Shown: positions 22,001-38,890, numbered from the stretch's first letter. The stretch: 62,550 bases of DNA from an uncultured virus (IMG/VR IMGVR_UViG_3300013093_000023) (IMGVR_UViG_3300013093_000023:62001-124550); one strand, 5' to 3'. Notes: generated from the sequence alone by a model not told the origin. A program made the numbers and translations.

Positions 22001-24930
22001 GGCACTACATAAACTGGTATGCTACTGGCTACGATTCGACTGTGGCTCCAAATATAACAGTTGCTACCACGCTTGATCTAGGTAAAATTACACTGACACC
22101 AAACACCTATGTCAAGGTAAATGATGCTGGCGATGGACTATTTGAAATCTACTACGTTGACAGCAGTTTGAATAAAACTCTTGTTGGTATAGAAAACGGA
22201 ACTATTCAGATTAGTACAGGTTCTATTCCTGGTCCTGAATTGCGTCAAATTCTAATTGCGTTAAAAGACGAAATATTCATCGATGATTTATCAGCAGACG
22301 GAAATCAAATTTTCTTCTCAATGATCAAATATGCGTTGACAGAACAAAAAAATCTTGATTGGGTATTTAAAACCAGTTTCTTAAGTGCTACACAGTACTT
22401 ACGTAAACTTGAACAATTCCCTAGCTATATTGCGGACAATCAAACTTATTATCAGCAATACATCAACGAAGTTAAGCCTTACCGAACAATTTTACGTGAG
22501 TTTGTTGTTGACTATCTAGGCAACGATCAATACTCAGGCGATGTCACAGACTTTGACTTGCCAGCATATTGGGACGCCTCGCTTGGTGTGTATCGCAGTC
22601 CAAGTGGTGAACAATCATATGACGATGGATTACTCAGCAACAATGGCCAATACCAATCTTGGGCCAACAATCACAGCTATAGCCTAGTTGGAATTACAGT
22701 TGATAACCCAGGACAAAATTATATTTTCCCACCACAGATTGTTCTAAGATATTCCGATGATCCAAAATCTCCAGTAATCCCAAATGCCAATGCCTATGCT
22801 GTATTAAATGGTGTAGGTGGTGTCGGAGAAATTATTGTAACAACTCCTGGTACTGGTTTAACTACTACTCCAAATATCACAATCAATGGGTCAGGAACTG
22901 GCGCAGTTGCTAGCCCAATCTTACGCAACGTCTATACTGGATTTACAGCTAATTCATATAACCTAGTTCGTAGCATTGGAACAACTATAAAGTTTGATCG
23001 TACCACGTATACAAATGCCAACACTTTTGTATTCTGGGATCAGGTCAGTGCTAACAATGTTATTTTGGCTAATACTATTGTTGTAAACGGTGAAGATTTA
23101 TACAAATTAACTGTAACCGATTGGCAGGCCAATACAGCGGCCAACGTTGGTACATTAATTTACTATAATGGCAACACCTATACTGTAACTGGTAATGTCG
23201 AGGGTCCTGTATTTTCAAGTATCCAGGCCAATGCTAATTTGTCAGTGGCAGGACAACGTGCTTATAGTGTAACCAGCAGTCTTGCTTTACCAATTGTAAA
23301 CTTAATACCACTTAAGGCTGGAGATTTTAACAACGCCAATGACCGTATTATTGCGTTCAATGGAAATATTGATCTAACTACAACAACAGATGGTATGAGC
23401 TATCCAGGGGTTATAGTCGATGGCAATACCTATGTTGGCACAGAGTACGATGCTGTTGTACAAAGTGCGTTTACAGATAGTGTAGGAGTAAATCCTGGCG
23501 ATATTAACATTGACGGCGGTGCTTACATTAGTACATTCAGCACACACGCACCTCAAGAATTAGTTCCAGGTCGTATGTATGATAGTTTAAATCTAACAGT
23601 ATACGACAAAGATGCATTATCATATCGTATTTTTAACAATATGAATCAATCAGTTAACTATTACAGAATTGCTTCAAACAATTCTGTGACATTAACTAGA
23701 TCTTTGGCACTAACAGATACAGCTATACAGGTCAATGATGCTACCAAATTGCCTTTGCCTGACAGACAATTAAATATTCCAGGCGTGATATTTGTTAACG
23801 GAGAAAAAATTGTTTACTGGAGAAACTACGCATTAGAAACTCCATTTACCTGGCAGGCTAATTTAAATATTTCAGTGGGTGAATTGGTTAGCCACAACAG
23901 CAACACTTACGTGACTACTGGTAATATCTACGACATTTATGGAAACTGGGCTAACATTCAAGCAAATACTAGCCGTGTTACTAATTTTAATACTATTACA
24001 CAATTACGTCGTGCAGTAGACGGCACAAGTCCACAGACTGTTCATGCTGCCGGTAGTCTTGCTATTGATGCCAGTGTTGATCAGGCAATCCCGGGTATAT
24101 TTGAAATACAAACAAAACTAACATCAAATACCAGCTACAAAGTAACAGATTCAAGTGCTATTACGTTTGCTTTAAAATTAACAGCGCCAATTAGTGCCAA
24201 CGTTGGAGATATTTTAACACAAAAAGTTACTATTGATCCTTGGACTGACGCAGACTACGAATCAAATAGATATGTTTACTATAACGGCAGTACTTATTTG
24301 ACTACTGGTAACATTCTGATCCCAACAGTACCTTGGACGCCAAATACTGTATTTGCCAACGCAACATTTATCAGTAATGGTAATGTTACCTATCTAACAA
24401 CTGGTAATGTCTATGCCAGCAACTTTGCCAACATTATTGCTAACGTAGCAACAGGGCACAGTAAGTTTGAAAAGATTTTAACATCAGGTAATGTATCATT
24501 TGCTTTTGCTGGAAACACAATTACCAGTGTAACTATGCGAGCAATGGATACAATCAGTAATTCAACCATAATACCAATTGTAATTACAAATGGTAGTATC
24601 ACTAACTTACCAGAAATTTTTGATGGTACTGGATTTGACGTTGAAGCTTTTGATAACACACCCGGTGCGTTGTACATTCAGGGCCCAAATCAACCAATAC
24701 CTATAAATGCCTACAGTTTTGTACGTAGTGCTTCAATATTGGGAGAAGTTGACATCACTGGTTATGCCGCAGTTAAAGCAAATTCGACAATTACCAGCAC
24801 ACGTACCTGGTACACCCCAGGCCCAGTTACAGCAACAAATGGAAGAGGTTTAATTAATAGCGCAACACCACAGGCCAACTTCTTAAAAGCCAGCAGAGGA
24901 TTTACTCCAGTACCAGGAACAACCCCATGA
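13072..24930 (+). CDS. Giant 3952-aa virion structural protein (baseplate wedge gp7-like scaffold with beta-propeller and carbohydrate-binding-like inserts)
   Basis: Follows gp6; KGTKNSI and YINEVKPYRT wedge-like motifs; FG-GAP-like repeats (FGTSIA...VGAPG) at ~19600-20760. Confidence 0.7.
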   Translation: MAQISSLNFLPEVFRSSANQRFLGATVDQLIADPVKRPISGYIGRKFAPTYKLGDNYVPELSGGRQDYQLEPSVVIKDSDKNIVFNAGYIDLLRSVQTNNGSVTDHQKLFGSEYYNYDGHFDYDKFINYSDYYWMPNGPDSVNVTAGTTPYEATYIVTRNTDVGGYTFSTLGGHPNTQITLARGGTYKFIVDQPGNPFWIQSEPGITGTDPNVPTLTTRDVFGVKNNGTDKGTITFSVPQTTAQDFYTLMPVAGQVDTAFAYSYTKIQNRLLSDFLVEFPDGLDGVSNLLQNKTFIFVGNLIDDNDWTTPDLPAEFTNSQITLTSGGVVPQATRTGIWQLILVPTLAGDFVIQLEPYGPVLPRQKVFVKGGKTYASTAFWLENTYQYKVIPPITSVKEYLYYQDANTGDFTGEIKIVDNSTVPIDVDNDIVGQIGYTSPNGVIFTNGLLIQFDSLVTPSTYALKQYYVEGVGQSITLVPVAGLTVPPGLSSLVSSTGDYITINRASQDGNSWSATNRWFHKDVLAAAAGYNNQATINYGPVIQARRPIIEFEPDIQLWQFGRQAKTKVDLFITASTDAFAEIEGQITYTLDGVTLTPGLRIIFSNDYDINVTNNIYTVSIESINSRNFIRLVLTADDPVLDGETIFVNSGANANKIFSYVGATASWLECQAKTTFNQAPLFDLVDADGYSFGDTTMYPASTFAGTKFFGYATATGTNDSILGFPLKYQNFNNIGDIVFQNYYDTDSFTYTGGAKDCNSGYIKKNSGLLSSEKFNNWIVGVEPTHQYQVFTRFFDGHVVTINNVEYAFLQLDILPADQATIPYVKVYLNNKLLTATTDYQITKYGVYDVLLFTSIPAVHDKIDIKIYSNNASTIAYYEVPDNLNYNPLNENFDTVTLGQIRNHYTKLIENTAATVTGNRPLHDSYIKAQGGTLLQQSSPVVYATAFLNDPSVNFINAVDLARKEYTKFKNKFLSLCGTLTTIDYKDPVSGVDTILANINSIKNNSYPWYYSDMVPQGENYTTITYTVLNSRQTKYEISTIFNNTELSNRAILVYLTRAGVTTQLTVGVDYEFSLNSPAITFLTALQNNDTITLRDYSTTDGNYIPETPTKLGLFPKYVPEIYTDITYQTAQSVIRGHDGSITPAFGDFRDQYLLELERRIYNNIKADNNNNIIDFYDIIPGRFRKTEYTIESITKLLSQNFLSWVGNNNLDYTSNSWYQQDNPWTWNYAIGFSDVVDGSPLQGSWRAIYEYWFDTDTPDLTPWEMLGLSSKPTWWEEHYGPAPYTNGNTTLWEDLAAGYVWNGGNGNDYTDLRFARPGLTKFIPVDRNGNLLPPTDIPLSTQYNTRDAAGDYAVGQQGPVETAWRRSSDFPYALQVALALSKPAEYFGTQLDISRFYVNPVTGHISNVNNQKINPSLLAVNGDTTSGTVLRTSGYINWIADSIKNLGIDPVTKLNDYFSNLSVQLAYRTAGFTDQKLISVTAEQTSPGSTNASVLIPDENYQVYLNKSNTTTTVNYSAVLVEKTSTGYMVKGYDTTTPFFTITPSIANNNKTTISVNDSTLNFYKDAQATSINIPYGTVFSTSQQVVDFLISYERYLRSAGFVFDQYDQDLQLQRDFKLSAQEFAYWIQQGFPTGSIIVLNPVVDTITLNSTYSVVDEITNLPGGSRLLDQNFVPIKSNRFNIVRASKTPTLNQTVVSTVDGSNIAYGKFNLVQLEHVLIFDNVDDFGDIIYVPKLGNRQYRLGIKGSITGNWNGGLTAPGYVYSNPVISNWSEGVDYKLGDIVKFNNNYFLAAVDIPASQLFGAGNWTQIKSSNIQTGLLPSFGTNAKVFEQIYDIDNPPQDEMLQKFSAGLLGFRERSYLTDLGVNISNQTKFYQGYIRQKGTKNSIDALTRASFNNVTGNISIYEEWAFRSGTYGDIDNNKFTEVVLDQSVFTTNPVSLLLTDNYDPTNIVVNLAVTGNTVTSNVYNSSNIQSTSTSIYSNRELNSVYINDMPYAGYVNVNDIDGTIFDVINYGQVFNLVAGNKIWVAKDVNKAWNVYRVSETNLLATQLTYSLDNYARLTFNNPHSFSVGEFVIVKNFNPHWDGIYQVTAIPNQLSITIQIQDKTKLGYLISVSPAYGSGQVYTLTSYVIDSIKDVESVRPINDFIANEHVWVNNATDIGWGVYTFNRPWAANSVQRLTANSASSNALLGSTVAASPDLNKIYVGAPGSNSVQIFANSAGSYTAVGTIANTDSKFGTSIATAGNLIAVGAPGASTVHIYSTSNGISSVQTLHSPNANVAFGSQVAFNSLGNVLYVSDPTTRSVHAFAGNLQTNHWSWRAKVTANVASIATTACGDRLFVGAPTDNNGYVQNGNVYIYSFNGTAFGVAQTITSQYKNSNAGFGTSLAVDATGGNLFVGVPYSTISKSADGLVERWVYTGGQYVFNSNIVHPNEAIGSLGTSMSVSSDGQVLAVGSSGSTGEEDTTFDNNTTVIDAQSTKFIDFILNSGTVYTFEPVFDYGTPNDLGKYTYIQELSSQLHAGDQFGTGVFASRTLVVAGAPGTTVSSLANAGEVHVYANPDSSIGWTLTRCQELKVDINSINRTFIYNKKDNNILTTIDYVDPLKGKVLNAVAADIDYQRVEDPAIYNAGQGTSTDYHWGPDQVGKIWWNLDAVRYIDYEQDTLDYRLNHWGERFPGSEILVYEWVESSMLPSQYAMSSTDGTPLYPDDSYYSTYGYVDQAGNVKIKYYFWVLNKSTINTAAGKQNSVYSIAAAIENPFSQGVAYSTVLRNDAVALYNVTNRLVGTNSVLHLSSRAVDAGLIHSEYALVQEGNPSSVLPRTIQNKITDSLAGIDSAGNVVPDPNLTAAQAYGINIRPRQSVFVNRTTALANYIDIVNTKLAVYQVTRRKVLTTLNSSEAAPNSSSGQYVVSVADNTELTYVDTTQLSTGDSALVVSDTTQNSKWAIYTWTGTTWVLGRTQKYKTNAVDSNGLGIYWHYINWYATGYDSTVAPNITVATTLDLGKITLTPNTYVKVNDAGDGLFEIYYVDSSLNKTLVGIENGTIQISTGSIPGPELRQILIALKDEIFIDDLSADGNQIFFSMIKYALTEQKNLDWVFKTSFLSATQYLRKLEQFPSYIADNQTYYQQYINEVKPYRTILREFVVDYLGNDQYSGDVTDFDLPAYWDASLGVYRSPSGEQSYDDGLLSNNGQYQSWANNHSYSLVGITVDNPGQNYIFPPQIVLRYSDDPKSPVIPNANAYAVLNGVGGVGEIIVTTPGTGLTTTPNITINGSGTGAVASPILRNVYTGFTANSYNLVRSIGTTIKFDRTTYTNANTFVFWDQVSANNVILANTIVVNGEDLYKLTVTDWQANTAANVGTLIYYNGNTYTVTGNVEGPVFSSIQANANLSVAGQRAYSVTSSLALPIVNLIPLKAGDFNNANDRIIAFNGNIDLTTTTDGMSYPGVIVDGNTYVGTEYDAVVQSAFTDSVGVNPGDINIDGGAYISTFSTHAPQELVPGRMYDSLNLTVYDKDALSYRIFNNMNQSVNYYRIASNNSVTLTRSLALTDTAIQVNDATKLPLPDRQLNIPGVIFVNGEKIVYWRNYALETPFTWQANLNISVGELVSHNSNTYVTTGNIYDIYGNWANIQANTSRVTNFNTITQLRRAVDGTSPQTVHAAGSLAIDASVDQAIPGIFEIQTKLTSNTSYKVTDSSAITFALKLTAPISANVGDILTQKVTIDPWTDADYESNRYVYYNGSTYLTTGNILIPTVPWTPNTVFANATFISNGNVTYLTTGNVYASNFANIIANVATGHSKFEKILTSGNVSFAFAGNTITSVTMRAMDTISNSTIIPIVITNGSITNLPEIFDGTGFDVEAFDNTPGALYIQGPNQPIPINAYSFVRSASILGEVDITGYAAVKANSTITSTRTWYTPGPVTATNGRGLINSATPQANFLKASRGFTPVPGTTP

Positions 24931-25631: not shown

Positions 25632-27704
25632 ATGGCCTATAACTTAACCAGAACAGACGGAACCGTATTAATTAACCTAGGCGATGGATACATTGATTCC
25701 AGTACCGGCGTTAATCTTATTGGCCGCAATACCCCATCTTACGGCGACGCACAAAATCAAAACTTTGTTCGTCTATTAGAAAACTTTGCCGACACGCTAC
25801 CGCCTAGTCAGACAGTAGCGGCATTAAACACACAAACAGGTACAGTTTGGTATGATACTACCAATCAGGTACTGCGTGTATATGATGGCTCCAATTGGAA
25901 TTATTCAACAGGACGCATTATTGCTAGTTCTGCTCCACTAGCATCCGGCAACATCACACTACACGCCGGTGATCAATGGTACGACAACGTCAACAACCAA
26001 CTTAATACCTGGGACGGTACTCAGTGGCAGTTGATTGGCCCGCAGGCTAGCTCTACCTATGGCAAGAGCGGTAGTTTTGTAGAAACAATATTAGATCCAG
26101 CTGGTATATACCATGTCGTAGTAAATGCCTACAGTAGTGGCAATTTAATTAGTGTTACAAATTACGATTCTACTTTTACTCCATTAACTCCTATTGCTGG
26201 TTTTACAACTATCAAGCCAGGAATTAATCTTAACACAAACAATAATAGTTTATATAATGGTACTGCTACCAACAGTACTTTATTGGCCAACATCACTCCT
26301 GCACAATTTGCTCGCAGAGATCAATATAATGCGTTTGCGTCAGACATTAGTGTTGCAGGAAACATTACATTTGGTTACGCTAACATACGCTTTACTAGTA
26401 ACAATAATATTGCTGTACACAACAACGCTTACCAAGGCAATGTTAATTTTTATGTAAATTCAGGCCTGGGCAATATCAATACTTTACACATTGATGGTGT
26501 AACTGGTTTAGCAACTGTTTATGGTGATCCTGTAACATCAAAAGGTATTGCTACTAAAAATTATGTTGACAGTATTCAATCTGGTATCAATGCCAATGTT
26601 ACAACATTAACTGGACAGGTTAATAATACATTATCAGATTTTTCAACTAGCATTGGCTCAGAGCTACAGGTTATTATTGCTCAAGCAACAGCTAACCTTA
26701 CAACCGCACAGGCATTGATTAATTCAAATGTTTCTACATTAAGTTCTTCAACTGATTCTAGATTTAATTTTGCCAATATTGAATTTGGCATTGTACAGAC
26801 TGAAATCAATTCTATAGATAATTATTTGTCATATTTGGCAACTACTGATAGCCCTGCGTTTACTGGCATACCAACAGCACCAAACGTACAGACTATGAAC
26901 AATTATATTTCTAGTCTACAAGGCAGTGAATACGTAATTACTCTAGAAAGTCCATCGGGTGTATTCAACGAAGGCGATTACCTAACACAGATATTAGTTG
27001 CCCAAACCTGGCAACCAAATACAAACTATTCACTAAACAGTTTGATTGAAAATACAGCTACAGGTAATAGTTATATTGTCTACGGTAATGTCTACGCTAA
27101 TTCATTTAGTTACATTGACCCCAACAATATTCAATATTTGTACACAGGCCGAACACATACCACAGCTAATTTTGCTGTTCAAGATGCGGTAAATGGTGCT
27201 ACCCAAGTTAATGTATCTGTAGTAAGTGGATCATTAAACGTAGCACAGCCAAGTATAATGGCTGTTAACGGCATTAATTTAAACAACGCGATTACTGGCA
27301 TACAATTATACAGTACAGGTTTACAATATCCTGGACTTGGTGATAATAGTGCTAACATCGCTACTACGGCTTATGTTGATGCTACAGCAAATTTAGTCTA
27401 TGGCGATTATGTTAATCGTGTAACTACATTAACAAACTATTTGAATACACAAATAGCACAGTTAAATGCTCTCAAAGCAAACATTGACAGTCCAACACTA
27501 ACAGGCAACGCGGCAGCTCCTACGCTGTCAAGTTTAACCTGGCAGTCAAATGTTGGAACACCACTAAGTGGAGATAGTACAACACGCATAGCAACTACAG
27601 CCTATGTTGCTCAAAGTATCCAGGGTCAGAAATTCAACTATACAGTAAGTAGCCAGCCACCAAGCGGTGGTAATGATGGCGACTTCTGGTTCCAAGTAAG
27701 CTAA
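25632..27704 (+). CDS. Tail fibre protein
   Basis: Shared N-terminal LIG.N...YG..QNQNFVRLLENFA module, SPAFTGIPTAP and IATTAYV fibre motifs, C-terminal GDFWFQ. Confidence 0.75.
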   Translation: MAYNLTRTDGTVLINLGDGYIDSSTGVNLIGRNTPSYGDAQNQNFVRLLENFADTLPPSQTVAALNTQTGTVWYDTTNQVLRVYDGSNWNYSTGRIIASSAPLASGNITLHAGDQWYDNVNNQLNTWDGTQWQLIGPQASSTYGKSGSFVETILDPAGIYHVVVNAYSSGNLISVTNYDSTFTPLTPIAGFTTIKPGINLNTNNNSLYNGTATNSTLLANITPAQFARRDQYNAFASDISVAGNITFGYANIRFTSNNNIAVHNNAYQGNVNFYVNSGLGNINTLHIDGVTGLATVYGDPVTSKGIATKNYVDSIQSGINANVTTLTGQVNNTLSDFSTSIGSELQVIIAQATANLTTAQALINSNVSTLSSSTDSRFNFANIEFGIVQTEINSIDNYLSYLATTDSPAFTGIPTAPNVQTMNNYISSLQGSEYVITLESPSGVFNEGDYLTQILVAQTWQPNTNYSLNSLIENTATGNSYIVYGNVYANSFSYIDPNNIQYLYTGRTHTTANFAVQDAVNGATQVNVSVVSGSLNVAQPSIMAVNGINLNNAITGIQLYSTGLQYPGLGDNSANIATTAYVDATANLVYGDYVNRVTTLTNYLNTQIAQLNALKANIDSPTLTGNAAAPTLSSLTWQSNVGTPLSGDSTTRIATTAYVAQSIQGQKFNYTVSSQPPSGGNDGDFWFQVS

Positions 27705-27707
27705 GTC

Positions 27708-28733
27708 ATGTACGGACGTGGAATATTTGTTAAAAAGAACGGACTTTGGGTCGAAACTACTCCGAGGGTAGCCGACCACAATAATCCACTGGCCAGTAAT
27801 ACTGGTAATACTGTTGTTGTTAGCGTTACAATTATTGGCGGCAGTGGTGGATCTGGTGGCGGCAATGGATACCCTGGTTATAACGGGCGTCAGGTCACTG
27901 GCAATCTTACACTAGGCTATAGCGATCAAATTACTGTAGCTATTGGCGCAGGTGGCGGAGCAGGTTCAGGAGGCGCCGGAGCTGGAGGTGGCAGTGGTGG
28001 CGCAAACAATCTAGGATTCAATGGAGCCAATGGTGGATCGGCTGGATCCGGTGGTGGTAACTCTGGAGGCGGTGGTGGTGGAGCAACCGTACTATTGCTA
28101 AACAAACAATTAAAAATCGTTGCCGGAGGCGGCGGAGGTGGAGGTGGCGGCGGAGCCAGCTCTGATGGTCGAGCAAATCAAGGCTATACTAGCGACGGAC
28201 ACCAATATGGATTACCCGGACAAGACAAAACATCTGGTGGTAATCAATATGTTGGGGGTGGCGGTGGTGGCAAGATCATCTGTACCAAACTATATCAGTT
28301 GGGATTATTGCCTGAAGACATTTATGCGGCAGACCAAGCATTTGGTGCTCGCTTAGTTGAACGTTACCCAGATGTATATAATGGCTATAGAGCTTGGGCA
28401 GAAATAGTAGTCGATTGGATGTCGGGTGATGGCCCACAAATGATGTTCTGGATACGTGACACAGAGCAACGTCGGCAGGCACAAATTAACTGGTCCACTC
28501 GGTGGGCACAGGCAATAGCAACTCCTTGGGCCAATTGGATGGCTAATCGCAACAGCCGTACTGGATTTGCCTTAATGGTAGTTGGTACTCCAATTAGTTA
28601 CGGGGTAGGTGTATGGCGTCGAGTATTTGGTGCCAGCAAAAAGCCAGCTGGATTTGTTAAAGGGCTAGCCTTAATTGGTGTATTTACGCTACTACGAACT
28701 GTAGTAACCATTGGAAAATTGTTAGGAAAATAA
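27708..28733 (+). CDS. Glycine-rich tail protein fragment 1 fused to KIICT Cys domain with hydrophobic C-terminus
   Basis: Gly-rich residues 1-188, then GGGGGG-KIICTKLY domain ending GLALIGVFTLLRTVVTIGKLLGK. Confidence 0.7.
   Translation: MYGRGIFVKKNGLWVETTPRVADHNNPLASNTGNTVVVSVTIIGGSGGSGGGNGYPGYNGRQVTGNLTLGYSDQITVAIGAGGGAGSGGAGAGGGSGGANNLGFNGANGGSAGSGGGNSGGGGGGATVLLLNKQLKIVAGGGGGGGGGGASSDGRANQGYTSDGHQYGLPGQDKTSGGNQYVGGGGGGKIICTKLYQLGLLPEDIYAADQAFGARLVERYPDVYNGYRAWAEIVVDWMSGDGPQMMFWIRDTEQRRQAQINWSTRWAQAIATPWANWMANRNSRTGFALMVVGTPISYGVGVWRRVFGASKKPAGFVKGLALIGVFTLLRTVVTIGKLLGK
28272..28733 (+). repeat. KIICT domain copy 1 (dispersed repeat, paired with 30671-31123)
   Basis: About three-quarters amino-acid identity to copy 2 by manual alignment; shared DNA blocks such as tggtccactcg, tgggccaattggatggc, ggatttgttaaagggctagc. 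Confidence 0.9.
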
Positions 28734-28734
28734 A

Positions 28735-28953
28735 ATGTATACAATAGATAGTTTAAGTGAACAGGTTATCAATAGTTTAAGTGATGCTGAACGCGATCAA
28801 CTGTACAACATACTGGTAAACAATACTGGATTAATGTTAAAGTTAATGCCAAATTTACCTTTGTTACTACATATCAGCGGTCAAGATAGAAATATTGCTC
28901 ATCCAGTTATTGCTAATTTTGAAGCATGGAAAACAAACCAATCACAGGCCTAA
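28735..28953 (+). CDS. Hypothetical 72-aa protein
   Basis: Starts 1 nt after the upstream stop and overlaps the next gene. Confidence 0.6.
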   Translation: MYTIDSLSEQVINSLSDAERDQLYNILVNNTGLMLKLMPNLPLLLHISGQDRNIAHPVIANFEAWKTNQSQA

Positions 28954-29360
28954 CAGTACGCCGAGTCATTGGGCCAGAGCTAACAGCGTTATGGCCTAAA
29001 GTAGAGGAATACATTGGTCGAGCTCAACCTTGGGGGTATGGTGATCATACTATTGAGCAGATTAAATTAGAATTGATAGTAACAGATAGATGGATACTGC
29101 TAATAGCAGAAGATGAAAATAAGGAAATACACGGAGCCGCAACATTTACTTTTATTGAATATCCCAACGATAAGGTAGCATTTATGACTTATATAGGTGG
29201 GCACTTAGTTAGCAACCCTGCTACAAATGCTCAATTAGAACGTATATTAAAATCATATGGTGCTACTAAAATACAAGGGTTTGTTAGAAAAAGTATGGCG
29301 CGATATGCCAGAATGTTTGGATACCGTGAACGAGGAATTGTTGTAGAAACTAAATTATGA
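28926..29360 (+). CDS. GNAT-fold acyltransferase-like protein
   Basis: IHGAATF, VAFMTYIGG, GATKIQG, MFGYRE pattern and size fit a GNAT fold; ATGA-coupled to the next gene. Confidence 0.6.
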   Translation: MENKPITGLTVRRVIGPELTALWPKVEEYIGRAQPWGYGDHTIEQIKLELIVTDRWILLIAEDENKEIHGAATFTFIEYPNDKVAFMTYIGGHLVSNPATNAQLERILKSYGATKIQGFVRKSMARYARMFGYRERGIVVETKL

Positions 29361-31123
29361 GCCAATACTATAGCCGACGCCAATTATATTCTCTAGGTGA
29401 ACCCCTAGGAGATAGTGCTACCCAGACTAAAGTGGGAGGCGGCCGTATCTACGGAGGTGGTGGTGGCGGGGGAGGTGGTGGACACAACACAGGACCCCAG
29501 GGCGGGGGAGGTGGTGGTGGAGGTGGAGGCTACGGCGGTGGTGTTGGCGGAAACCAATACGGCGAAAACGATGGTGCTTATAGCGGAAGTAATGGCGGAA
29601 GTCTAGTACCGTCTGGATGTGTTGAAACAGATTCAGGCTTGGGTGCCAGTGCTGATGGTAAAGTAATAATAAGTTATGTTAGCCCATCACGTTTATTCAG
29701 TGGCGGGGATATATCTTTTGATGGATATACCTGGACACATACTTATACTACAGATACACCAGCATCAGAATCTATATTTACAACCAAAGGCGCCCCAAGC
29801 GGGTTTGGTCCTTTTGTTGAAGTAGCACAAGGGTGGACAAAGATCAACGGAGAATGGAAACAATTCTTTCCGAGCACTGGTAAAATTACATTTAACCCAG
29901 ATGGTACACTAGATTTAACAACATCTCAAGGAGTCCTGTCTGGGGTTTTACCTGCCGATGCGGCAAAGTTAGCACAAGGTGTAAACAACACCAACGCCGG
30001 ACAGCTAGATTACGCAAGTAGTGTTCGTGCGTCCAACCAATTATTTTATCTAAGCCAGGTTACACCTTATCCTATTACTGCCAACAATGTTATAGCACCA
30101 AACGCATTCAGCTCCGGCGCAGTAGTAGTAATTGATAAAAATGGAAATCCAGTAGACATAGCTGATTCTAGCGATCCAATTGGTACATTCTTAAATTACG
30201 TGTTTGACCCAACACTAGACGGCGGCAATGAAGCACAACAAAATAGTTTTATAAGTTGTATACAGGCTGCCGAGTATGTACAGGCTGTTAATAACAGTTT
30301 GTCTGGCACTACTAATACCTATACATTTACAGTTCCACCTGGAATTTTCCAGGTTACCATAGATGCCGTTGCTGGCGGAGGTGGCGGCGGAGGTGGAGAA
30401 GAAGTAGGTGTAGGTGATGCTGGAGGCGGTGGTGGTGGAGCTGGCTACGTACAAGGACAAACTATGACAGTAAGTCCTGGCGAGCAACTGACTATTACTA
30501 TTGGTCAAGGCGGCGGTGGAGCACCAGTAGTCGGAAGAACAACCGGAGCACCTGGCGGAGCACCTGGCTCAAGCACAGCAATTACAGGTTTAGACGGACA
30601 TATTGTGGTTACAGGTGGACGTGGAGGCGGCGGTGGAGCCAGCGCAGATACCGGTGGGGGTGGTGGCGGCAAGATCATCTGTACTAAGCTCTATGAACTT
30701 GGACTACTACCCAAAGATATTTACGAAGCCGACCAAGCGTTTGGCGCTCGTTTAGTTGAAAGTTACCCAGACATTTATAACGGATATCGTGCCTGGGCTG
30801 AAATTGTAGTTGATTGGATGAACGGGCAAGGTCCTAAGATGATGCCTTGGATGTCAGATGATGAATTTAGCACAGCGGCACAACAGTGGTCCACTCGATG
30901 GGCACAGGCAATAGCAACACCGTGGGCCAATTGGATGGCACACAAAAACGATCGTACAGGATTAGCACTGATGATTGTAGGTACACCAATCAGTTATGCT
31001 GTAGGAGTATGGCGTCGGATATTTGGGCCAGCACGTAAACCAGCAGGATTTGTTAAAGGGCTAGCTCTTATTGCGGTATTTGTATTATTAAGAGCTATTG
31101 TACTAATAGGAAAGGGCAAATAA
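29357..31123 (+). CDS. Glycine-rich tail protein fragment 2 with 32-aa leader and C-terminal KIICT domain
   Basis: MSQYYSRRQLYSLGEPLGDS leader, Gly10, GKVIISY, TFTVPPG Gly-rich domain start, then GGGGGG-KIICT. Confidence 0.7.
   Translation: MSQYYSRRQLYSLGEPLGDSATQTKVGGGRIYGGGGGGGGGGHNTGPQGGGGGGGGGGYGGGVGGNQYGENDGAYSGSNGGSLVPSGCVETDSGLGASADGKVIISYVSPSRLFSGGDISFDGYTWTHTYTTDTPASESIFTTKGAPSGFGPFVEVAQGWTKINGEWKQFFPSTGKITFNPDGTLDLTTSQGVLSGVLPADAAKLAQGVNNTNAGQLDYASSVRASNQLFYLSQVTPYPITANNVIAPNAFSSGAVVVIDKNGNPVDIADSSDPIGTFLNYVFDPTLDGGNEAQQNSFISCIQAAEYVQAVNNSLSGTTNTYTFTVPPGIFQVTIDAVAGGGGGGGGEEVGVGDAGGGGGGAGYVQGQTMTVSPGEQLTITIGQGGGGAPVVGRTTGAPGGAPGSSTAITGLDGHIVVTGGRGGGGGASADTGGGGGGKIICTKLYELGLLPKDIYEADQAFGARLVESYPDIYNGYRAWAEIVVDWMNGQGPKMMPWMSDDEFSTAAQQWSTRWAQAIATPWANWMAHKNDRTGLALMIVGTPISYAVGVWRRIFGPARKPAGFVKGLALIAVFVLLRAIVLIGKGK
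30671..31123 (+). repeat. KIICT domain copy 2
   Basis: Paralogous to 28272-28733. Confidence 0.9.
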
Positions 31124-31124
31124 T

Positions 31125-31436
31125 ATGGCAGGCGGTGGAGCAGGTGGAACCCCAAACGGCAGCCCAGGTGCTGACGGGCAAGGCGGTAGCGGAGATAGCA
31201 GTTCAGGATCCGGCGGTGCAGGTGGCAGTACACCTTTTGGCACAGGTGGCGCTGGCGGCGTCCCTGGGGATAGCACCGGCAAAGACGGCCAAGGCTATGG
31301 AGCCGGCGGCGGTGGAGCAGGATTTACAGATAGAACCGGTCCACTTAACTGGGGCGGAGGCGCAGGTGCGCCGGGGCTAGTAAGAATTTATTGGGGGCCA
31401 CAACAAGACCCAAATTACACTACAGTACCAAAGTAA
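31125..31436 (+). CDS. Glycine-rich tail protein fragment 3
   Basis: MAGGGAGG...GYGAGGGGAG...GGAGAPGLVRIYW is the typical C-terminal half of phage Gly-rich domains. Confidence 0.7.
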   Translation: MAGGGAGGTPNGSPGADGQGGSGDSSSGSGGAGGSTPFGTGGAGGVPGDSTGKDGQGYGAGGGGAGFTDRTGPLNWGGGAGAPGLVRIYWGPQQDPNYTTVPK

Positions 31437-31443
31437 TAATTTT

Positions 31444-31451
31444 GATAAGTA
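31444..31451 (+). promoter_or_regulatory. Late promoter variant GATAAGTA
   Basis: One mismatch to GATAAATA; intergenic, upstream of ATG 31471. Confidence 0.5.
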
Positions 31452-31470
31452 CAGTATAACGGAATAAAAT

Positions 31471-33429
31471 ATGCCATACACAATTAATCATTATAACGGC
31501 AACGTATTAATACAAACAATTAACGACGGGTTTGCAGACAATTCAACCTCGCTGACTTTCCCTGGCCCAAATTATGTAGGCTATGGGCAGTATCTTAACC
31601 AAAACTTAGTATATCTACTAGAGAATTTTGCGGGAAACACAGCACCCGGCGGTCAAAATGTACCTGGACAACTTTGGTTTAACACACAACAACAAACATT
31701 AAACGTATTTACAAGTGCTGGATATGTTCCAGTATCTGGTGTTATTGTAAGTAATCTACAACCAGCTGGTACTAAACCCGGCGATACTTGGTTTAATACT
31801 GGTACAAGTCAGTTTTATTTGTTTGATGGAACTGATTGGAATTTAATTGGGCCAGCATACACTAGAGCACAAGGTATCAGCGGTGCAGTACCTGTTCCGG
31901 TAGTTGATACGCTAGGTACTGTACATAATATTCTTCAACTACAGTATGGTAATGTAGTTATTGCTACAGTCAGCGGAGATCCAACGTTTGCTCCTGCTTC
32001 AGGATTATCTGGTTTTACCTTAGTAAAACCTGGTATTACATTTAACAGTTCAATGACTGCTTCGATTAATACCAACATTGTTGGTACCCTAACCGGTAAC
32101 GTAGTTGCTCAGTCTATATCTGGCACATTAACTGGACCAGTGTTTGGTAACTTAACTGGTGACGTAGTTGGTAACTTAACTGGTAACGTTGTAGCAACTA
32201 CACTAGTTGGGTCATTGACTGGTAACGTACAAAGTAGTCGTGGGCAAATAACAAACTTTAGTACAGCTAACGCTGTGATTGCTGGCGGATATATTACAGT
32301 ATCAAATGTAACAACCCTAACATTAACAGCTACAAATCTCAGTACAGCCAATGCTGTAATCACAGGAGGCACAGCAACAGGCCTTGCTAACATTTCAGCT
32401 ACAACTGGTTCTTTTTCTACCATTAACGTAACAACAGAAATTGTTGCTAATTTACGTACAGGCAACGCACAAATTACTGGTGGTAACTCATCTGTAACAA
32501 ATGCAACATCGGTAAATGAAACCGCTACAAACTTTAGTACTGGTAATGCTCTTATCACCGGCGGTAACGTTAATGGCCTTACTAATTTAAGTGCGGCAAC
32601 CGCATCCTTCCAAAATTTAACTACAACTTCTATTAGTATCAGCAGTGGTAGTATCGCTGGTTTAACTAACTTAGGTTCTGGTAATGCTACTATTACAAAC
32701 TTTAGCACTGGCAACGCACAGGTCACCGGCGGTACGCTAGCAAATGTATCAATAACTACTCCTGTTGTTACTCGAGCAAACTTAGTAAATGCTATTGCAA
32801 ATACTCCAGCAACTAATGATCGTACTGCCAACGTAGCTACTACCGCTTTTGTTCATAATGTTATGCCAACTGGTATGATTATTATGTGGGGCGGTTTAGT
32901 TTCTAATATTCCAAGTGGCTGGCATTTATGTGATGGCACTGGTGGTACACCAGATTTACAAGATAGATTTATTGTAGGCGCTGGAAACAATTATAATGTT
33001 GGCGACTCAGCTGGTCAAAACACCACTACACTAACTACTGCTATGTTACCAAGCCATAACCACTTTGTAACATTAACTGGCAATACAAATACTGCTGGTA
33101 GTCACTCACACGGAGTGGCAATAACTGACAATGGACACGCACACGTTATGCCGGGTGACGATCAGCTAGCATTTGCTGCCGGCCGTGCTAACTGGAGTGG
33201 ATCATCAGTTGACAGTTTTGGATACGATGCTACCAGTGTAGCCAGTGGCGGTGGAAGATTATGGAATACAACAACTGCTAGCACTGGTATTGGCGTCAGC
33301 ATTAATACTGCCAATGACCACTTACATTCGTTAACTATTTCTGGAAATACTGCGTCAACTGGTGCTGGTACAGCATTTGATAATCGCCCACCTTACTACG
33401 CACTTTGCTTTTTACAGAAAGTCTATTAA
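31471..33429 (+). CDS. Tail fibre protein with phage tail-collar domain
   Basis: Shared fibre N-terminus; GNLTG and NFSTGNA.ITGG repeats; collar motif MPTGMIIMWGG...GWHLCDG..GTPDLQDRFIVGAG; HxH tip motifs; NRPPYYALCF. Confidence 0.85.
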   Translation: MPYTINHYNGNVLIQTINDGFADNSTSLTFPGPNYVGYGQYLNQNLVYLLENFAGNTAPGGQNVPGQLWFNTQQQTLNVFTSAGYVPVSGVIVSNLQPAGTKPGDTWFNTGTSQFYLFDGTDWNLIGPAYTRAQGISGAVPVPVVDTLGTVHNILQLQYGNVVIATVSGDPTFAPASGLSGFTLVKPGITFNSSMTASINTNIVGTLTGNVVAQSISGTLTGPVFGNLTGDVVGNLTGNVVATTLVGSLTGNVQSSRGQITNFSTANAVIAGGYITVSNVTTLTLTATNLSTANAVITGGTATGLANISATTGSFSTINVTTEIVANLRTGNAQITGGNSSVTNATSVNETATNFSTGNALITGGNVNGLTNLSAATASFQNLTTTSISISSGSIAGLTNLGSGNATITNFSTGNAQVTGGTLANVSITTPVVTRANLVNAIANTPATNDRTANVATTAFVHNVMPTGMIIMWGGLVSNIPSGWHLCDGTGGTPDLQDRFIVGAGNNYNVGDSAGQNTTTLTTAMLPSHNHFVTLTGNTNTAGSHSHGVAITDNGHAHVMPGDDQLAFAAGRANWSGSSVDSFGYDATSVASGGGRLWNTTTASTGIGVSINTANDHLHSLTISGNTASTGAGTAFDNRPPYYALCFLQKVY

Positions 33430-34001
33430 TGATTATAGAGTTGGACAATTTTGTTAGTCCAGATATTGTAAATTATTTAAGCGGCAAATTACGTGAATCT
33501 AAAAGCATTTACGGTGAAGCAAACGAGTATCATAGACAGGGTGTTACTGTAACAATTAGTAAAATCCCAGAGTTAGCTGAAGTTAACAACCAACTCAGCA
33601 AAATTTTTGGTAAAATTAAGCAAACTGTACGCGAGTATTACAGACCCAGTTACAGCGGTAACAGCGACACAGGATACGAATATCACTTGTACGAACCCGG
33701 CGATGTATGCGAACTACACAGTGATAGCGAAATAGTAGCAGGTGTGAATGAATTACGCTATGCCAGCGTGGTTCTTCATTTAAGCACAATTAACAATGGT
33801 GGGGAATTGGTTTTTCCAGCACAAAACCAAACGGTAACAACACGTGCTGGAAAAGTAGTAATTTTCCCTCCATATGGTATGTTCAGCCATTATACAACCC
33901 CTAGCACAGAAGCCAGGGAAGTAATAGTATCGTGGCTAACATACGATGGTGTAGGCATTGTTAAAAAAGGCATAAATATAACAAGCAATCAAGGACTATA
34001 A
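33429..34001 (+). CDS. 2OG-Fe(II) oxygenase (prolyl-4-hydroxylase-like)
   Basis: HSD...H iron triad, GGELVF, GKVVIFP and distal Arg; ATG 33429 in TAATG overlap. Confidence 0.8.
   Translation: MIIELDNFVSPDIVNYLSGKLRESKSIYGEANEYHRQGVTVTISKIPELAEVNNQLSKIFGKIKQTVREYYRPSYSGNSDTGYEYHLYEPGDVCELHSDSEIVAGVNELRYASVVLHLSTINNGGELVFPAQNQTVTTRAGKVVIFPPYGMFSHYTTPSTEAREVIVSWLTYDGVGIVKKGINITSNQGL
33971..33978 (+). promoter_or_regulatory. Late promoter CATAAATA
   Basis: Upstream of AAGGA RBS and ATG 34002. Confidence 0.6.
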
Positions 34002-36944: not shown

Positions 36945-37265
36945 ATGAGCGAAATCGAACAACTCACTGCCGAAATACGTCGGGCAACTGATTACCAAAT
37001 TAACAAACGCATCTTGCGTGAAAAAATCCAAACAGATTTGCATTTTGCTTATAATGGTGGCCTGTTTAAAGTTACTCCAGAGTTATTAATGTTCAGTTCA
37101 AGTTGGCCAAAACACGAGCCACTTTATCTAGAAGACACATACCAAAACCCTATACATATTATAGATCCAGAATTCTTTGCAACACAATGTAAAGAACATT
37201 ATCAACAAGTAATGAATCGTTGGCATCAAGAACATGGCGAACTCAAACGTCTCCGCAAAATCTAA
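36945..37265 (+). CDS. Hypothetical protein
   Basis: First ORF after the promoter; overlaps the next gene. Confidence 0.7.
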   Translation: MSEIEQLTAEIRRATDYQINKRILREKIQTDLHFAYNGGLFKVTPELLMFSSSWPKHEPLYLEDTYQNPIHIIDPEFFATQCKEHYQQVMNRWHQEHGELKRLRKI

Positions 37266-38052
37266 AGGCATCATTATATTTGCCTTCAATACGCAGGTAG
37301 ACTACGTGTCTATAGCTGACCTAACAAGTCGTTTGGCTGCACACAATCTCCAATTACCAATTACCTTAGTAACAGATGATACTACTACGCCCACGTTTGC
37401 CTATGATCAAATAATTCGTATCAATCCTGAACGTGCGACTTTTAGAATCAACGATGGTAAAGAAATAGCCTGGCGCAATCGGGGAAGATACAATGCCTAT
37501 GAACTAAGTCCATACGACACAACTATATTGCTTGATGTTGACTATCTAATGTTAGACAATAGTCTATTAAAAATAGCAGACACAGTTCAAGACTATAGAT
37601 TAATGCATCACAACACCACAGACATTGGGCCGGCCTATGAAGAAATGGGCGAAACTAGTTTACCATTTGTATGGGCTACAGTAGTTGTATTTAAAAAAAC
37701 TGAACGCAGTCAAATGTTGTTTAATCTAGTAGGAAAGATACAACGTAATTATCACTACTATAGAGAATTATATAATATACGTGAAGGCAATTATCGCAAT
37801 GACTACGCATTTGCTATTGCTAACAATATTCTCAGTGGATACAACTTAAATGAATCACAGAGTATTCCGTGGCCTATGTACACAGCAGATCAAAAGATAG
37901 AACGTATTGTAACGACTGCTACTCAGGTTAGAATCTATTACGATAAATCAGCTACAGTAGTACCACGTATGAATATACACGTAATCGACAAAGAGTATTT
38001 ACAAAGTGATAACTTTCGACAGGTAGTGGAGGCAATAGTTGAGCCAACATAA
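37234..38052 (+). CDS. GT-A fold glycosyltransferase-like protein (GT8-like)
   Basis: YELSPYDTTILLDVDYL with DXD; WATVVVFKK. Confidence 0.65.
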   Translation: MANSNVSAKSKGIIIFAFNTQVDYVSIADLTSRLAAHNLQLPITLVTDDTTTPTFAYDQIIRINPERATFRINDGKEIAWRNRGRYNAYELSPYDTTILLDVDYLMLDNSLLKIADTVQDYRLMHHNTTDIGPAYEEMGETSLPFVWATVVVFKKTERSQMLFNLVGKIQRNYHYYRELYNIREGNYRNDYAFAIANNILSGYNLNESQSIPWPMYTADQKIERIVTTATQVRIYYDKSATVVPRMNIHVIDKEYLQSDNFRQVVEAIVEPT

Positions 38053-38890
38053 AGAACAACAGGGTTTTGTTACTTTCGCACAAAACACAGACACAGTAGA
38101 TTATTTGGAGCTGGCATATCTGCAGGCTCTTAATGTTAAAGCAACACAAAAGAATAACCAATACGCAGTAATTGTTGACACAGCAACTGAGGAGAAAATT
38201 AATGATAGCCATCGTCGTGTTTTTGATTATATTATTCGTGTTCCCTATGACAATAATAATGCTTCCTCTAATTGGAAGCTGGGCAATGAATATCAGGTTT
38301 TTAATCTCACACCGTTTAAAGAAACTATTAAATTAGAAAGTGACTTACTGTTTACTCGCAGTATTGACCATTGGTGGACAGCCTTTAGATTAAAAGATTT
38401 ATGTTTAAGCACACACGCTAGAAACTATAGAGATTTAATATCCGGTGTAAGAAAATATCGGCGTGTGTTTGACGACAATGAATTGCCAGACGTATATAAC
38501 GGACTGATGTATTTTAGATACAGTCGTGATGGCGCTAACTTTTTTAAAGTAGCCGAAGTATTACACCGTAACTGGCATCATATAAAAAATGAAATCTTAG
38601 TAAACTGTAGAGAAGATAATCCCAGCACTGATGTACTGTATGCGCTGGCCGCAATGATAGTGGGAGTTGAAACCTGTACAATGCCCGGGATGGATTTTAT
38701 TAATTTTGTACATATGAAATCAGAATTCAATGGGTGGTTAGATGCTCGTAGTTGGGTGGATACAGTTTTATATGAACAAGAAGGTGATGTTATTCGCATA
38801 AACAATTTAAATCAGTTAAGCCCAGTACACTACTATGATAAAAATTTTGCTACTAAAGAATTAATCGAGTACTATGAATCAAGAATTTGA
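38039..38890 (+). CDS. GT-A fold glycosyltransferase-like protein (paralog of the previous gene)
   Basis: LTPFKETIKLESDLLF (EXD), YNGLMYF, FVHMK. Confidence 0.6.
   Translation: MSQHKEQQGFVTFAQNTDTVDYLELAYLQALNVKATQKNNQYAVIVDTATEEKINDSHRRVFDYIIRVPYDNNNASSNWKLGNEYQVFNLTPFKETIKLESDLLFTRSIDHWWTAFRLKDLCLSTHARNYRDLISGVRKYRRVFDDNELPDVYNGLMYFRYSRDGANFFKVAEVLHRNWHHIKNEILVNCREDNPSTDVLYALAAMIVGVETCTMPGMDFINFVHMKSEFNGWLDARSWVDTVLYEQEGDVIRINNLNQLSPVHYYDKNFATKELIEYYESRI

Follow-up and report, generated by a model that had tools for sequence, protein, structure and literature searches.

In phage Aeh1, the nrdA gene is split by mobE into NrdA-a and NrdA-b, and insertion-derived tails assemble the two pieces (Crona et al. 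2011, PMC3045599). In the 'fractured genes' described mainly in phages, split inteins flank a free-standing homing endonuclease (Dassa et al. 2009, PMC2677866). The TG/GRD domain, TNF-like and glycine-rich, is known from the fibre protein gp24 of cyanophage Pam3 (7YPX; PMC9608196), and adhesin modules are exchanged at or near conserved, repetitive DNA encoding Gly-rich motifs (2011, PMC3157838). Here we describe a tail-fibre locus that shares features with all of these systems.

The window is a stretch of 62,550 nt from an uncultured virus (IMGVR_UViG_3300013093_000023:62001-124550), a freshwater T4-like phage, and all positions are numbered over the whole window. The locus (27708-31436) comprises ORF A (27708-28733, 341 aa), ORF B (29357-31123, 588 aa) and ORF C (31125-31436, 103 aa), which, like every feature named below, lie on the plus strand. 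Residues 1–188 of A (27708..28271) consist of an N-terminal fibre-type segment and piece 1 of a first TG domain, closing with a Gly run (28254-28271), and are fused in frame to the first copy of an all-helical domain, KIICT (28272..28733, 153 aa plus stop), with its invariant Cys at residue 192. A 72-aa companion ORF (28735..28953) starts one base past the stop of this copy and is followed by a 144-aa ORF (28926..29360), the stop of which overlaps the start codon of B (ATGA). B opens with a 32-aa leader (MSQYYSRRQLYSLGEPLG...GGGRIY; 29357..29452), a motif common at the N-termini of phage virion proteins, and then a Gly run. Residues 33–109 (29453..29683) form piece 2 of the first TG domain, with Gly runs followed by ...GAYSGSNGGSLVPSG...DGKVIISY; residues 110–318 (29684..30310) form the middle region of the fibre protein, to which no family was assigned; and residues 319–438 (30311..30670) form piece 1 of a second TG domain, again with a Gly run at the end. 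The second KIICT copy (30671..31123, 150 aa plus stop, invariant Cys442) has no companion ORF after it, and C, starting one base past its stop, is over its whole length (31125..31436) piece 2 of the second TG domain. Two further ORFs lie between A and B and none between B and C. The two KIICT copies are identical at 116 of 149 positions (78%, E 4e-89) and both end in GK-TAA-N-ATG; the three ORFs and the two copies lie where the initial annotation placed them. The locus is flanked by a 690-aa fibre-type gene upstream (25632..27704), with the N-terminal fibre motif in common and a syntenic gene in L051, and by a 652-aa tail fibre gene downstream (31471..33429; phrog_8469 'tail fiber', E 1.8e-25), which is syntenic in L008, L015, L051, and L052.

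Arithmetic on the ORF coordinates showed that cutting out 28272-29452 and 30671-31127 joins codon boundaries, A's 188 codons running on into B codon 33 and B's 438 codons into C codon 2, so the excision is in frame, as had been proposed. Contigs X5, X6, and X8, from sequencing runs of studies distinct from the possible source, span 28272, 28733, 29357-29452, 30671, and 31123 with 0 differences, and L052, from a different sample, has an identical KIICT-stop-N-ATG-MAGGG junction. Misassembly was ruled out by this bridging of every junction in independent metagenome contigs. A search of 26500-32500 against Rfam returned no family at E ≤ 1. A self-splicing intron was rejected on the lack of a ribozyme match at that threshold and on the insert being coding and under selection, in line with the earlier view that the inserts leave no obvious room for a ribozyme.

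The earlier claim that the Gly-rich domains are truly split, with contiguous homologues elsewhere, was borne out. The A|B break is real because P0004 (593 aa), colinear with A 4-145, B 54-193, and B 322-586, is continuous across it (A 4-145 corresponds to P0004 5-164, and B 54-193 to P0004 188-330). Homologues uninterrupted at A|B also include L043, P0155, P0157, P0164, and P0036; in alignments with the uninterrupted domain, the A piece corresponds to positions 1-173 (L043) and the second piece, in B, to positions 125-232. The Pfam search gave no match for A or the beginning of B, and these align to homologues that match Pfam Gly_rich_2 (PF21722), P0036 among them. The B|C break is real because profiles continue across it. 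The phrog_863 profile takes up B 198-438 at positions 292-518 and C 3-90 at 518-603, and Gly_rich_2 matches B 319-438 at positions 3-111 of 226 (26.9 bits vs. a cut-off of 24.3), with only a weak match to C (E 4; positions 136-225 of 226). Besides the profiles, only the more distant P0048 and P0119 provide complete domains for B|C.

The fold comparison used the AF2 model of an uninterrupted homologue, L043:4234-4938 (pLDDT 74, pTM 0.75, eight strands), in place of the window's own pieces. The model matched the Pam3 fibre (7ypx, Z 13.6), the Bxb1 tail tip (9d93, 13.1), and the ALK GRD (11.4-12.3), the next match scoring 4.5; Foldseek gave 19 matches at E ≤ 1e-3, all to Bxb1, ALK, or LTK, followed by Pam3 7ypx at E 5e-3. 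In this homologue model, the window's A|B break falls inside the sole long low-confidence loop (142-192), and neither piece is a whole domain because the strands are divided, six in piece 1 (A) and two in piece 2. Stop codons and new starts fall within both TG domains, neither of which is encoded as a single continuous chain. Judged by sequence and predicted structure, the split domains are TG (TNF-like/glycine-rich) fibre-tip domains of the Pam3 gp24/ALK type, sharing fold and family with Pam3 gp24, the Bxb1 tail tip (9D93), ALK/LTK, and PF21722. The known TG examples are single chains, whereas each domain here is divided between two polypeptides, and a foreign domain is attached at the break.

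KIICT is a widespread, previously undescribed all-helical domain, almost always forming the C-terminus of phage fibre-like proteins. It spans about 150 aa and makes up 393 clusters at 50% identity; of 100 full-length matches, 98 have it at the C-terminus. The domains joined to it on the N-terminal side include Gly_rich_2, DUF4815, Ig-like, and PA14 domains. KIICT shows higher conservation than these diverse partners, and most KIICT proteins are not split. The AF2 model has six helices, no strand, and one compact unit (pLDDT 86.9, pTM 0.80). The invariant Cys (135 of 135 residues at its column) is the fourth residue of the domain, at the first helix, and its presence at the start of KIICT would not be accounted for by docking alone. 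An alignment of 33 sequences contained no invariant His, and the invariant columns provided no His, Ser, or Lys dyad, K7 and K12 being nearly invariant only. At least 4 Gly in 6 residues precede KIICT in 83 of 127 representatives. The domain matched no Pfam family, Peptidase_S74 included, and no solved structure in a fold search; no Peptidase_S74 chain was among the rows of that search, where absence does not exclude the family. Pfam Hint families did not match A or B at E ≤ 0.01, and the same library gave weak, sub-threshold Hint, Vint, and Hom_end_hint matches on P0001 (E about 3e-4); together with the six-helix model, these results uphold the view of KIICT as a non-Hint domain. Three cluster representatives have a Hint domain, with VHN at its end, immediately N-terminal to KIICT. 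KIICT occurs in a single copy in each of five further phage records, of which three are at least 90% complete, a pattern more in keeping with a dedicated function than with an element that spreads freely.

An HMM of the companion ORF family matched the ORF immediately 3ʹ of KIICT in 37 of 48 loci and the window's 72-aa ORF at E 1.8e-29, the latter having no match in Pfam, PHROG, or NCBIfam. The 144-aa ORF had no family in Pfam, PHROGs, or NCBIfam (best only DUF4225, E 0.08), and at its position other loci have unrelated ORFs. Searches of the inserts against Pfam, PHROGs, and NCBIfam found no endonuclease or other mobility gene of a known family. Other phage virion proteins share the 32-aa leader of B, a generic N-terminal motif. 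Of 176 candidate stretches in viral contigs, 153 encode it; the proteins that begin with it are about 350 to 1035 aa long, and 5 of 13 such proteins tested matched phrog_4287 'DNA ejection protein'. P0088 consists of the leader, a Gly run, and KIICT, and nothing else.

The positions of the breaks differed among loci. L004, L007, L016, and L017 are broken near domain position 73-85, and the window, P0160, and P0013 at position 165-173. All relatives found share one site for the B|C break (Pfam coordinates place it there in the window, L008, and L015, and sequence does so in L051 and L052), and a single ancient event, retained because it serves a function, could therefore account for it. The KIICT phylogeny is incongruent with the insertion sites: the tree requires at least two origins each for two of the site classes, the two copies of L008 are sisters (100/97), and the KIICT of L051/L043 at the B|C site belongs to a distant clade. 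The GGN runs give rise to many near-repeats of 14-35 nt across the locus, that is, to microhomology. The initial annotation had offered, as its alternative, a cassette inserting in GGN-codon runs, and this fits best because the Gly-run sites differ, P0004 represents an empty site, and the KIICT tree is at odds with the distribution of sites.

Purifying selection acts on all pieces. At dS of 1 to 2, dN/dS was 0.08 between the KIICT copies, 0.11 for C vs. L052 and 0.17 vs. L051, and 0.22 for the B piece (319-438) vs. L051, and the split layout is kept with intact frames in diverged phages.

The explanation that we favour, and hold to be somewhat more probable than otherwise, is that A, B, and C form a stable, selected 'genes-in-pieces' adhesin of the tail-fibre tip, which arose by recombination into Gly-codon runs and the pieces of which reassemble non-covalently. 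The three polypeptides would belong to one adhesin, each of whose two TG receptor-binding domains is divided between two genes. The incoming DNA would have supplied a gene end (Gly run, KIICT, stop, and usually the small companion gene) and a new gene start, and would have recombined into a Gly-codon run within a long loop of the TG domain. The new start appears to be the common phage N-terminal motif plus a Gly run for B, and only ATG-GCA ahead of the Gly run for C. The recombination itself we infer, and the lack of a detected mobility gene in the inserts speaks against it.

As in Aeh1 nrdA, inserted DNA cuts a phage gene in two, leaving a C-terminal tail on piece 1 and an N-terminal tail on piece 2, and homologues with an empty site exist (P0004 and others for A|B); function is restored there without RNA or protein splicing, and we propose the same for A, B, and C. 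In contrast to the Aeh1 case (PMC3045599), no endonuclease gene was found in the window inserts, the C-terminal 'tail' is a conserved domain of large size and wide distribution that has a companion gene of its own, and the interruptions, two within a single locus, fall in a structural adhesin domain. The Gly-rich motif DNA at the window breaks is of the same repetitive kind as in the adhesin-exchange system. The exchanges in that system (PMC3157838) swap specificity loops within one gene, whereas the exchange in the window brought a stop codon, extra genes, and a new start. The stop-N-ATG junctions and ATGA overlaps suggest that the genes are translated as a coupled operon.

Peptidase_S74-type C-terminal intramolecular chaperone domains occur on tailspikes and fibres. 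KIICT resembles them in that, as a conserved module, it forms the C-terminus of varied fibre proteins and has at its start an invariant residue of the nucleophile type, and differs in that this residue is Cys, not Ser, and that no sequence or fold likeness was found. KIICT might accordingly be a putative self-cleaving assembly domain, chaperone-like within its own chain, that aids folding or oligomerisation and cuts at or near the invariant Cys, leaving the TG pieces without the 150-aa appendage. We regard this as unlikely, if worth keeping in view. The C-terminal placement (98/100), the conservation exceeding that of the varied N-terminal partners, the flexible Gly linker ahead of the domain, and the position of the Cys at the first helix agree with it, as do the three representatives in which a Hint ending in VHN would detach KIICT too, and phage fibres are known to use chaperone caps and intramolecular chaperone domains (PMC10579305; PMC9608196). 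However, no catalytic partner is evident, there being no invariant His, Ser, or Lys dyad and only the nearly invariant K7/K12, and no match to Peptidase_S74, to any other Pfam family, or to a solved fold was found. An extended version holds that KIICT is a new Cys-dependent self-processing domain of phage fibre proteins, which aids assembly, forms a thioester at the invariant Cys, and releases itself, which in split genes might hand a Gly-terminated piece to the next, and which travels as a two-gene cassette entering Gly-codon runs; this seems to us rather improbable.

The last KIICT helix is hydrophobic, with a Kyte-Doolittle 19-residue mean of 1.8 in copy 1 and 2.6 in copy 2, and is a candidate membrane helix. 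It is nevertheless improbable that KIICT is a membrane anchor, of which the last one or two helices would tether fibre pieces in the host inner membrane during assembly, or that the proteins function at the membrane and do not belong to the virion, as AF2 gives the whole domain as a compact six-helix unit (pTM 0.80), K, E, and R are present in the family consensus of these helices, and the N-terminal partners are fibre or adhesin domains.

The initial annotation had interpreted the locus as a candidate protein-ligation system, in which a thioester on the KIICT Cys at the Gly-run boundary would transfer each upstream piece to the next and make A, B, and C one covalent protein. The invariant Cys, the Gly runs ahead of KIICT (83/127), and downstream pieces that are Gly-rich close to their N-termini would suit this scheme, as would a layout reminiscent of the fractured genes with split inteins (PMC2677866): piece 1 has a C-terminal extension starting near a Cys, followed by intervening ORF(s) and a piece 2 with a short N-terminal leader. 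Relative to fractured genes, however, KIICT is all-helical without a Hint match, its Cys is the fourth residue and not the first, the B leader lacks a terminal HN with Cys, Ser, or Thr after it, and insert 2 has neither leader nor intervening ORF. A split intein was rejected on the absence of a Hint family on A and B, the six-helix model, the Cys not being the first residue, and the lack of an IntC ending in HN. As in sortase A and Hint proteins, the invariant Cys adjoins a Gly-rich boundary, but the domain is all-helical, with no LPXTG-type motif and no invariant His, and the 'oligo-Gly restart' named in the initial annotation gives the next piece, as encoded, no free N-terminal oligoglycine. 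C and seven relatives begin with MAG, MAA, MPG, or MAT (C itself with MAGGG), B carries its generic 32-aa phage leader, which ends in GGGRIY and is followed by Gly, and the second halves of the L004 type begin with MAITDYY or MPGSDY. A sortase-type transpeptidase was likewise rejected (all-helical model, no invariant His in 33 sequences, acceptors without a free oligo-Gly start). For most KIICT proteins, moreover, there is no downstream second half. Ligation is very improbable in our judgement. The earlier interpretation holds as to the split, the non-Hint domain, and the cassette alternative, and a dedicated ligation system finds no support because KIICT is a general C-terminal domain of hundreds of mostly unsplit phage proteins, without a sortase-like fold or invariant His, and because the next pieces start with no free oligo-Gly, or with a generic leader. 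That the inserts are removed before or during translation (intron or ribosomal bypass), or that a selfish insertion left the split genes behind as decaying remnants, is scarcely credible in spite of the repetitive GGN runs at both insert ends, given no Rfam family at E ≤ 1 in the searched region, strong purifying selection on the KIICT coding sequence (dN/dS 0.08) and also on C and the B piece, and the intact split frames in diverged phages.

Returning to the genes-in-pieces adhesin, we consider that its pieces probably snap together without chemical ligation, for which the purifying selection on them is indirect support. Non-covalent complementation would rebuild each beta-sandwich and polyglycine lattice, and the rebuilt domains would fasten A to B and B to C, while KIICT and the companion protein may serve in the assembly or docking of fibre proteins and not in ligation.

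The record holding the window is a T4-like myovirus of 124,550 bases with a CheckV completeness of 34%, and the window carries genes for a gp55-type late sigma factor, the baseplate hub and wedge, a 3,952-aa structural protein and several fibres. In the ORF listing, the fibre ORFs A (27708-28733), B (29357-31123) and C (31125-31436) follow in this order, with a 72-aa ORF (28735-28953) and a 144-aa ORF (28926-29360) lying between A and B, and the junctions within this cluster are stop-N-ATG or ATGA overlaps. A and B each end in a copy of KIICT, an all-helical C-terminal domain of about 150 aa. These coordinates and the two KIICT copies, which share 78% protein identity (E 4e-89), agree with the initial annotation. 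Contigs from studies other than the possible source spanned all junctions with 0 differences, and the KIICT-stop-N-ATG-MAGGG junction was also found in L052, a contig of another sample, which excludes misassembly: the split layout is no assembly artefact. The window sequence was present in lake and freshwater metagenome runs of 12 studies, with no RNA runs listed among them. Megablast of 27000-32000 gave no match among GenBank phages, and no Rfam family was found at the locus.

Several features of the surrounding region were recorded. The 3,952-aa protein is encoded by a single ORF (13072-24930; phrog_10938, virion structural protein) that immediately precedes the fibre cluster. The gene for a 2OG-Fe(II) oxygenase (33405-34001) begins within the final codons of the 652-aa tail fibre gene, as it does in L052. 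Directly 3ʹ of the fibre genes, about a dozen closely packed + strand ORFs occupy 37234-50150, seven of them with weak to moderate radical-SAM PHROG matches. Next come carbamoyltransferase, kinase, aminotransferase and epimerase genes, and the whole set may be a modification pathway. The T4 late-promoter consensus octamer TATAAATA had 0 copies on either strand of the whole window (8.6 +/- 3.1 in shuffles), despite the gp55-like late sigma gene at 2801-3682.

Two domains are divided among A, B and C. For the second, residues 319-438 of B matched the first half of the Pfam family Gly_rich_2 (PF21722; positions 3-111 of 226), C matched positions 136-225 weakly (E 4), and a single PHROG profile continued from B (profile 292-518) into C (518-603). 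The first, formed by A and the start of B, was aligned with six uninterrupted homologues and belongs to that family too, as a more distant member. A structure model was made of one of these six, L043:4234-4938 (pLDDT 74, pTM 0.75, eight strands). Its best match was the fibre of cyanophage Pam3 (7ypx; Z 13.6, rmsd 2.3, 151 aligned), ahead of the tail tip of Bxb1 (9d93; Z 13.1) and the glycine-rich domains of ALK (Z 11.4-12.3); the next chain scored 4.5, and Foldseek concurred. On these fold matches, the Gly-rich tail protein carries TG domains, that is, TNF-like sandwiches whose strands are linked by long polyglycine loops. PDB sequence searches with two relatives, P0048 and P0004, gave nothing meaningful, and literature searches for PF21722 and Gly_rich_2 gave no paper.

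The break between A and B (A|B) falls within the sole long low-confidence loop of the homologue model (142-192), with six strands before it and two after, so that neither piece is a complete domain. Together with the successive profile parts matched by B and C, this bears out the proposal that the Gly-rich domains are split. Pairwise alignment of B-type with A-type TG domains was unreliable beyond the fourth strand; from strand order we infer that the two breaks in the window occupy equivalent loops of their respective domains, the direct alignment being ambiguous. With C as the query, a word-based homologue search returned just 3 proteins, Gly words swamping the search, and the related-locus search gave 4 loci, all split. 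Purifying selection was found on C and the B piece (dN/dS 0.11-0.22), and, as described below, on KIICT, so every piece is under selection.

Whether an uninterrupted relative of the joined protein exists had a different answer at each break. At A|B an empty site was found: the 593-aa protein P0004 aligns colinearly with A 4-145, B 54-193 and B 322-586 and runs uninterrupted over the break, yet KIICT terminates it at the B|C site. At B|C no close relative continuous over the break was found, continuity there being limited to distant complete domains (P0048, P0119) and profiles. Alternative sites are also used. In L004, L007, L016 and L017 the same type of TG domain is broken elsewhere, near position 73-85; piece 1 has a Gly run and KIICT at its end, followed by the companion ORF (the small gene after KIICT), and the remainder of the domain is a 148-150-aa gene unbroken through the window's break point. 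P0160 and P0013 are broken at the window's site and have different N-terminal architectures. The layout at B|C is conserved: the break in L008 and L015 shares the window's profile position, and that in L051 and L052 is at the same place by sequence. Between KIICT and piece 2 there, the window and L052 have nothing, L008 has a 69-aa companion ORF, and L015 and L051 have unrelated ORFs of 140 aa and 103 aa, respectively. In the syntenic relative L008 (6711-7773), the C-like piece 2 runs on into a second KIICT, after which comes a second companion ORF. By eye, the continuous TG domains of P0155, P0157, P0164 and P0036 have apparent large in-frame insertions in loops where other phages have KIICT breaks (in P0155, about 135 aa between '...VAVGGSGGPG' and 'YSGARGG'), which suggests that TG-domain loops tolerate insertions.

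KIICT behaves as a module. A full HMMER scan gave 393 cluster representatives at E<=1e-3 (clusters at 50% identity), all with the source name 'hypothetical protein', and Pfam, PHROGs and NCBIfam hold no model for the domain. Among the best 150 matches, 98 of the 100 reaching the domain end had 30 or fewer residues after it. Of 127 representatives, 83 had a Gly run (4 or more Gly within 6 residues) before the domain, 8 had Cys/Asn-rich repeats there and 3 the VHN end of a Hint domain. Its N-terminal partners range from 100 to >1,600 residues and include Gly_rich_2, DUF4815, Ig-like and PA14 domains, and the sole cultured carrier found was Synechococcus phage SynMITS9220M01, in which gene 028 lies amid fibre genes. 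The HMM of the 72-aa ORF matched the ORF directly 3ʹ of KIICT in 37/48 loci, a count that takes in near-duplicate contigs and the window's own contig. The window's two KIICT copies differ at most synonymous sites (pS 0.70, dN/dS 0.08), which indicates that they are old, translated and under strong purifying selection.

The AF2 model of KIICT (33 sequences) was a confident six-helix domain (pLDDT 86.9, pTM 0.80). No convincing solved relative was found: a PDB profile search gave nothing meaningful, Foldseek against the PDB gave no hit at E<=1e-3, BFVD held uncharacterised homologues only and the ESM Atlas viral hypothetical clusters only. The Cys-dependent NEL E3-ligase domains of SlrP, SspH1 and IpaH topped the fold search (Z 5.8, 5.4 and 4.0) and were dropped, lying below the stated noise level for helical models. 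The Cys of the KIIC motif (Cys192 in A, Cys442 in B) was kept in 135/135 alignment rows having a residue there, a further 21 rows being N-terminally cut; D27, G31, G44, Y45, W48 and A49 were also invariant or nearly so, and the alignment had no invariant His. In a large KIICT subgroup (L018-L044, e.g. L018:2695-3591), KIICT comes after a Cys/Asn-rich N-terminal part, about 135 aa long, with an ...NCNCS end, and at L021:5707-7360 two adjacent paralogues terminate in (CN)n repeats and lack KIICT. In P0001 (residues 362-506) and L025:2269-3795, a Hint/intein-like domain (CFDPNS...FIVHN) separates the first part of a Gly-rich domain from KIICT, an order (N-domain, Hint, helical C-domain) reminiscent of Hedgehog-type proteins. 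Canonical splicing is not expected, since the next residue is Lys rather than Cys, Ser or Thr.

A KIICT tree was built from 60 domains after exclusion of twelve loci that were near-identical and three proteins lacking the motif. It did not match the three site classes, and its starred branches required two or more origins for the window-type site and likewise for the B|C site. The KIICT copies of L008 were sisters (100/97), the window's two copies formed a small group with P0152, P0154 and P0001 (86/88), and the copies of L051 and L043 at the B|C site lay far away, in a clade shared with DUF4815 proteins. The tree would be explained by either cassette exchange or within-genome homogenisation of copies, both of which would entail DNA transfer between sites. 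Judged from its sequence, insert 1 (28272-29452, between the A and B pieces) resembles the end of one gene, a pair of small genes and the start of another gene, with both joins to the host domain inside Gly runs, and GGN near-repeats of 14-35 nt are abundant across the locus. For T-even gp38, exchanges have been documented at or close to those adhesin motifs that are most conserved (PMC3157838). 'Joints' in metagenome contigs were considered as excised forms and rejected; their sides were 20-25 letters in Gly runs and were taken as cross-matches from other organisms. The idea of a selfish cassette inserted in GGN-codon runs divides: a cassette in Gly runs is a better reading than ligation, whereas a freely spreading element is argued against by the single KIICT copy in each of five other records (three at least 90% complete) and by the absence of a detected nuclease gene at the locus.

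The leader, the first 32 aa of B, was 81% identical to that of P0153, compared with 61% for the whole proteins. Its motif, M..YSRR(E/Q)LYALGEPLG..T..K.GG.IYGGGG, has no annotation and may be a targeting or processing signal; it was encoded by 153/176 candidate stretches in viral contigs. It stands at the N-terminus of proteins some 350 to 1,035 aa long, and many small phage contigs (L056-L134, e.g. L079:3995-6418) encode large proteins that begin with it. A 'DNA ejection protein' PHROG was matched by 5 of 13 leader-motif proteins tested, and P0088 consists of leader, Gly run and KIICT and nothing else. A general leader-KIICT docking pair was dropped, as in 79 other loci KIICT and the companion ORF were not within 4 kb of the leader motif.

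We propose that the A, B and C genes undergo coupled translation, and that non-covalent complementation of the sandwich and polyglycine lattice would tie A to B and B to C, with KIICT and the companion protein perhaps serving in assembly or docking. Docking alone does not explain the invariant Cys at the first helix, right after a flexible Gly linker. This placement would suit self-cleavage by KIICT, which we regard as a serious rival, albeit an improbable one. The hydrophobic last helix would fit a membrane role for KIICT, for which we see still poorer odds. Ligation of the pieces by KIICT, as the initial annotation had suggested, is possible in principle but unsupported by these results and very improbable: the majority of KIICT proteins lack a partner to which they could be joined, the domain folds like neither Hint nor sortase, and Gly is not the first residue of the acceptor pieces.

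The closest precedent for a fragmented gene whose product would reassemble non-covalently is NrdA of phage Aeh1, also a case of gene fragmentation by inserted DNA; the gene was cut by mobE and its product is put together again via tails arising from the insertion (PMC3045599), whereas for A, B and C reassembly is proposed. The layout also resembles that of 'fractured genes' with split inteins (PMC2677866), but A and B have no Hint match and neither B nor C begins like the C-terminal part of an intein.

The observation is real, conserved and interesting. Gene fragmentation with reassembly is of a known kind; new here are the TG adhesin domain as the target, the double split, and a large module of KIICT and companion absent from Pfam, PHROGs and NCBIfam. 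In phage fibres, TG domains form the tips that bind receptors; in animals, they are the part of ALK/LTK that binds the ligand. Should two chains translated separately be able to form the TG fold, it would be a possible natural non-covalent connector, useful in fibre engineering. KIICT and its companion form a large unannotated family at the end of many phage fibre-like proteins, with docking, chaperoning and self-cleavage as candidate functions, and repetitive Gly codons may allow phages to insert gene ends and gene starts in the middle of a domain.
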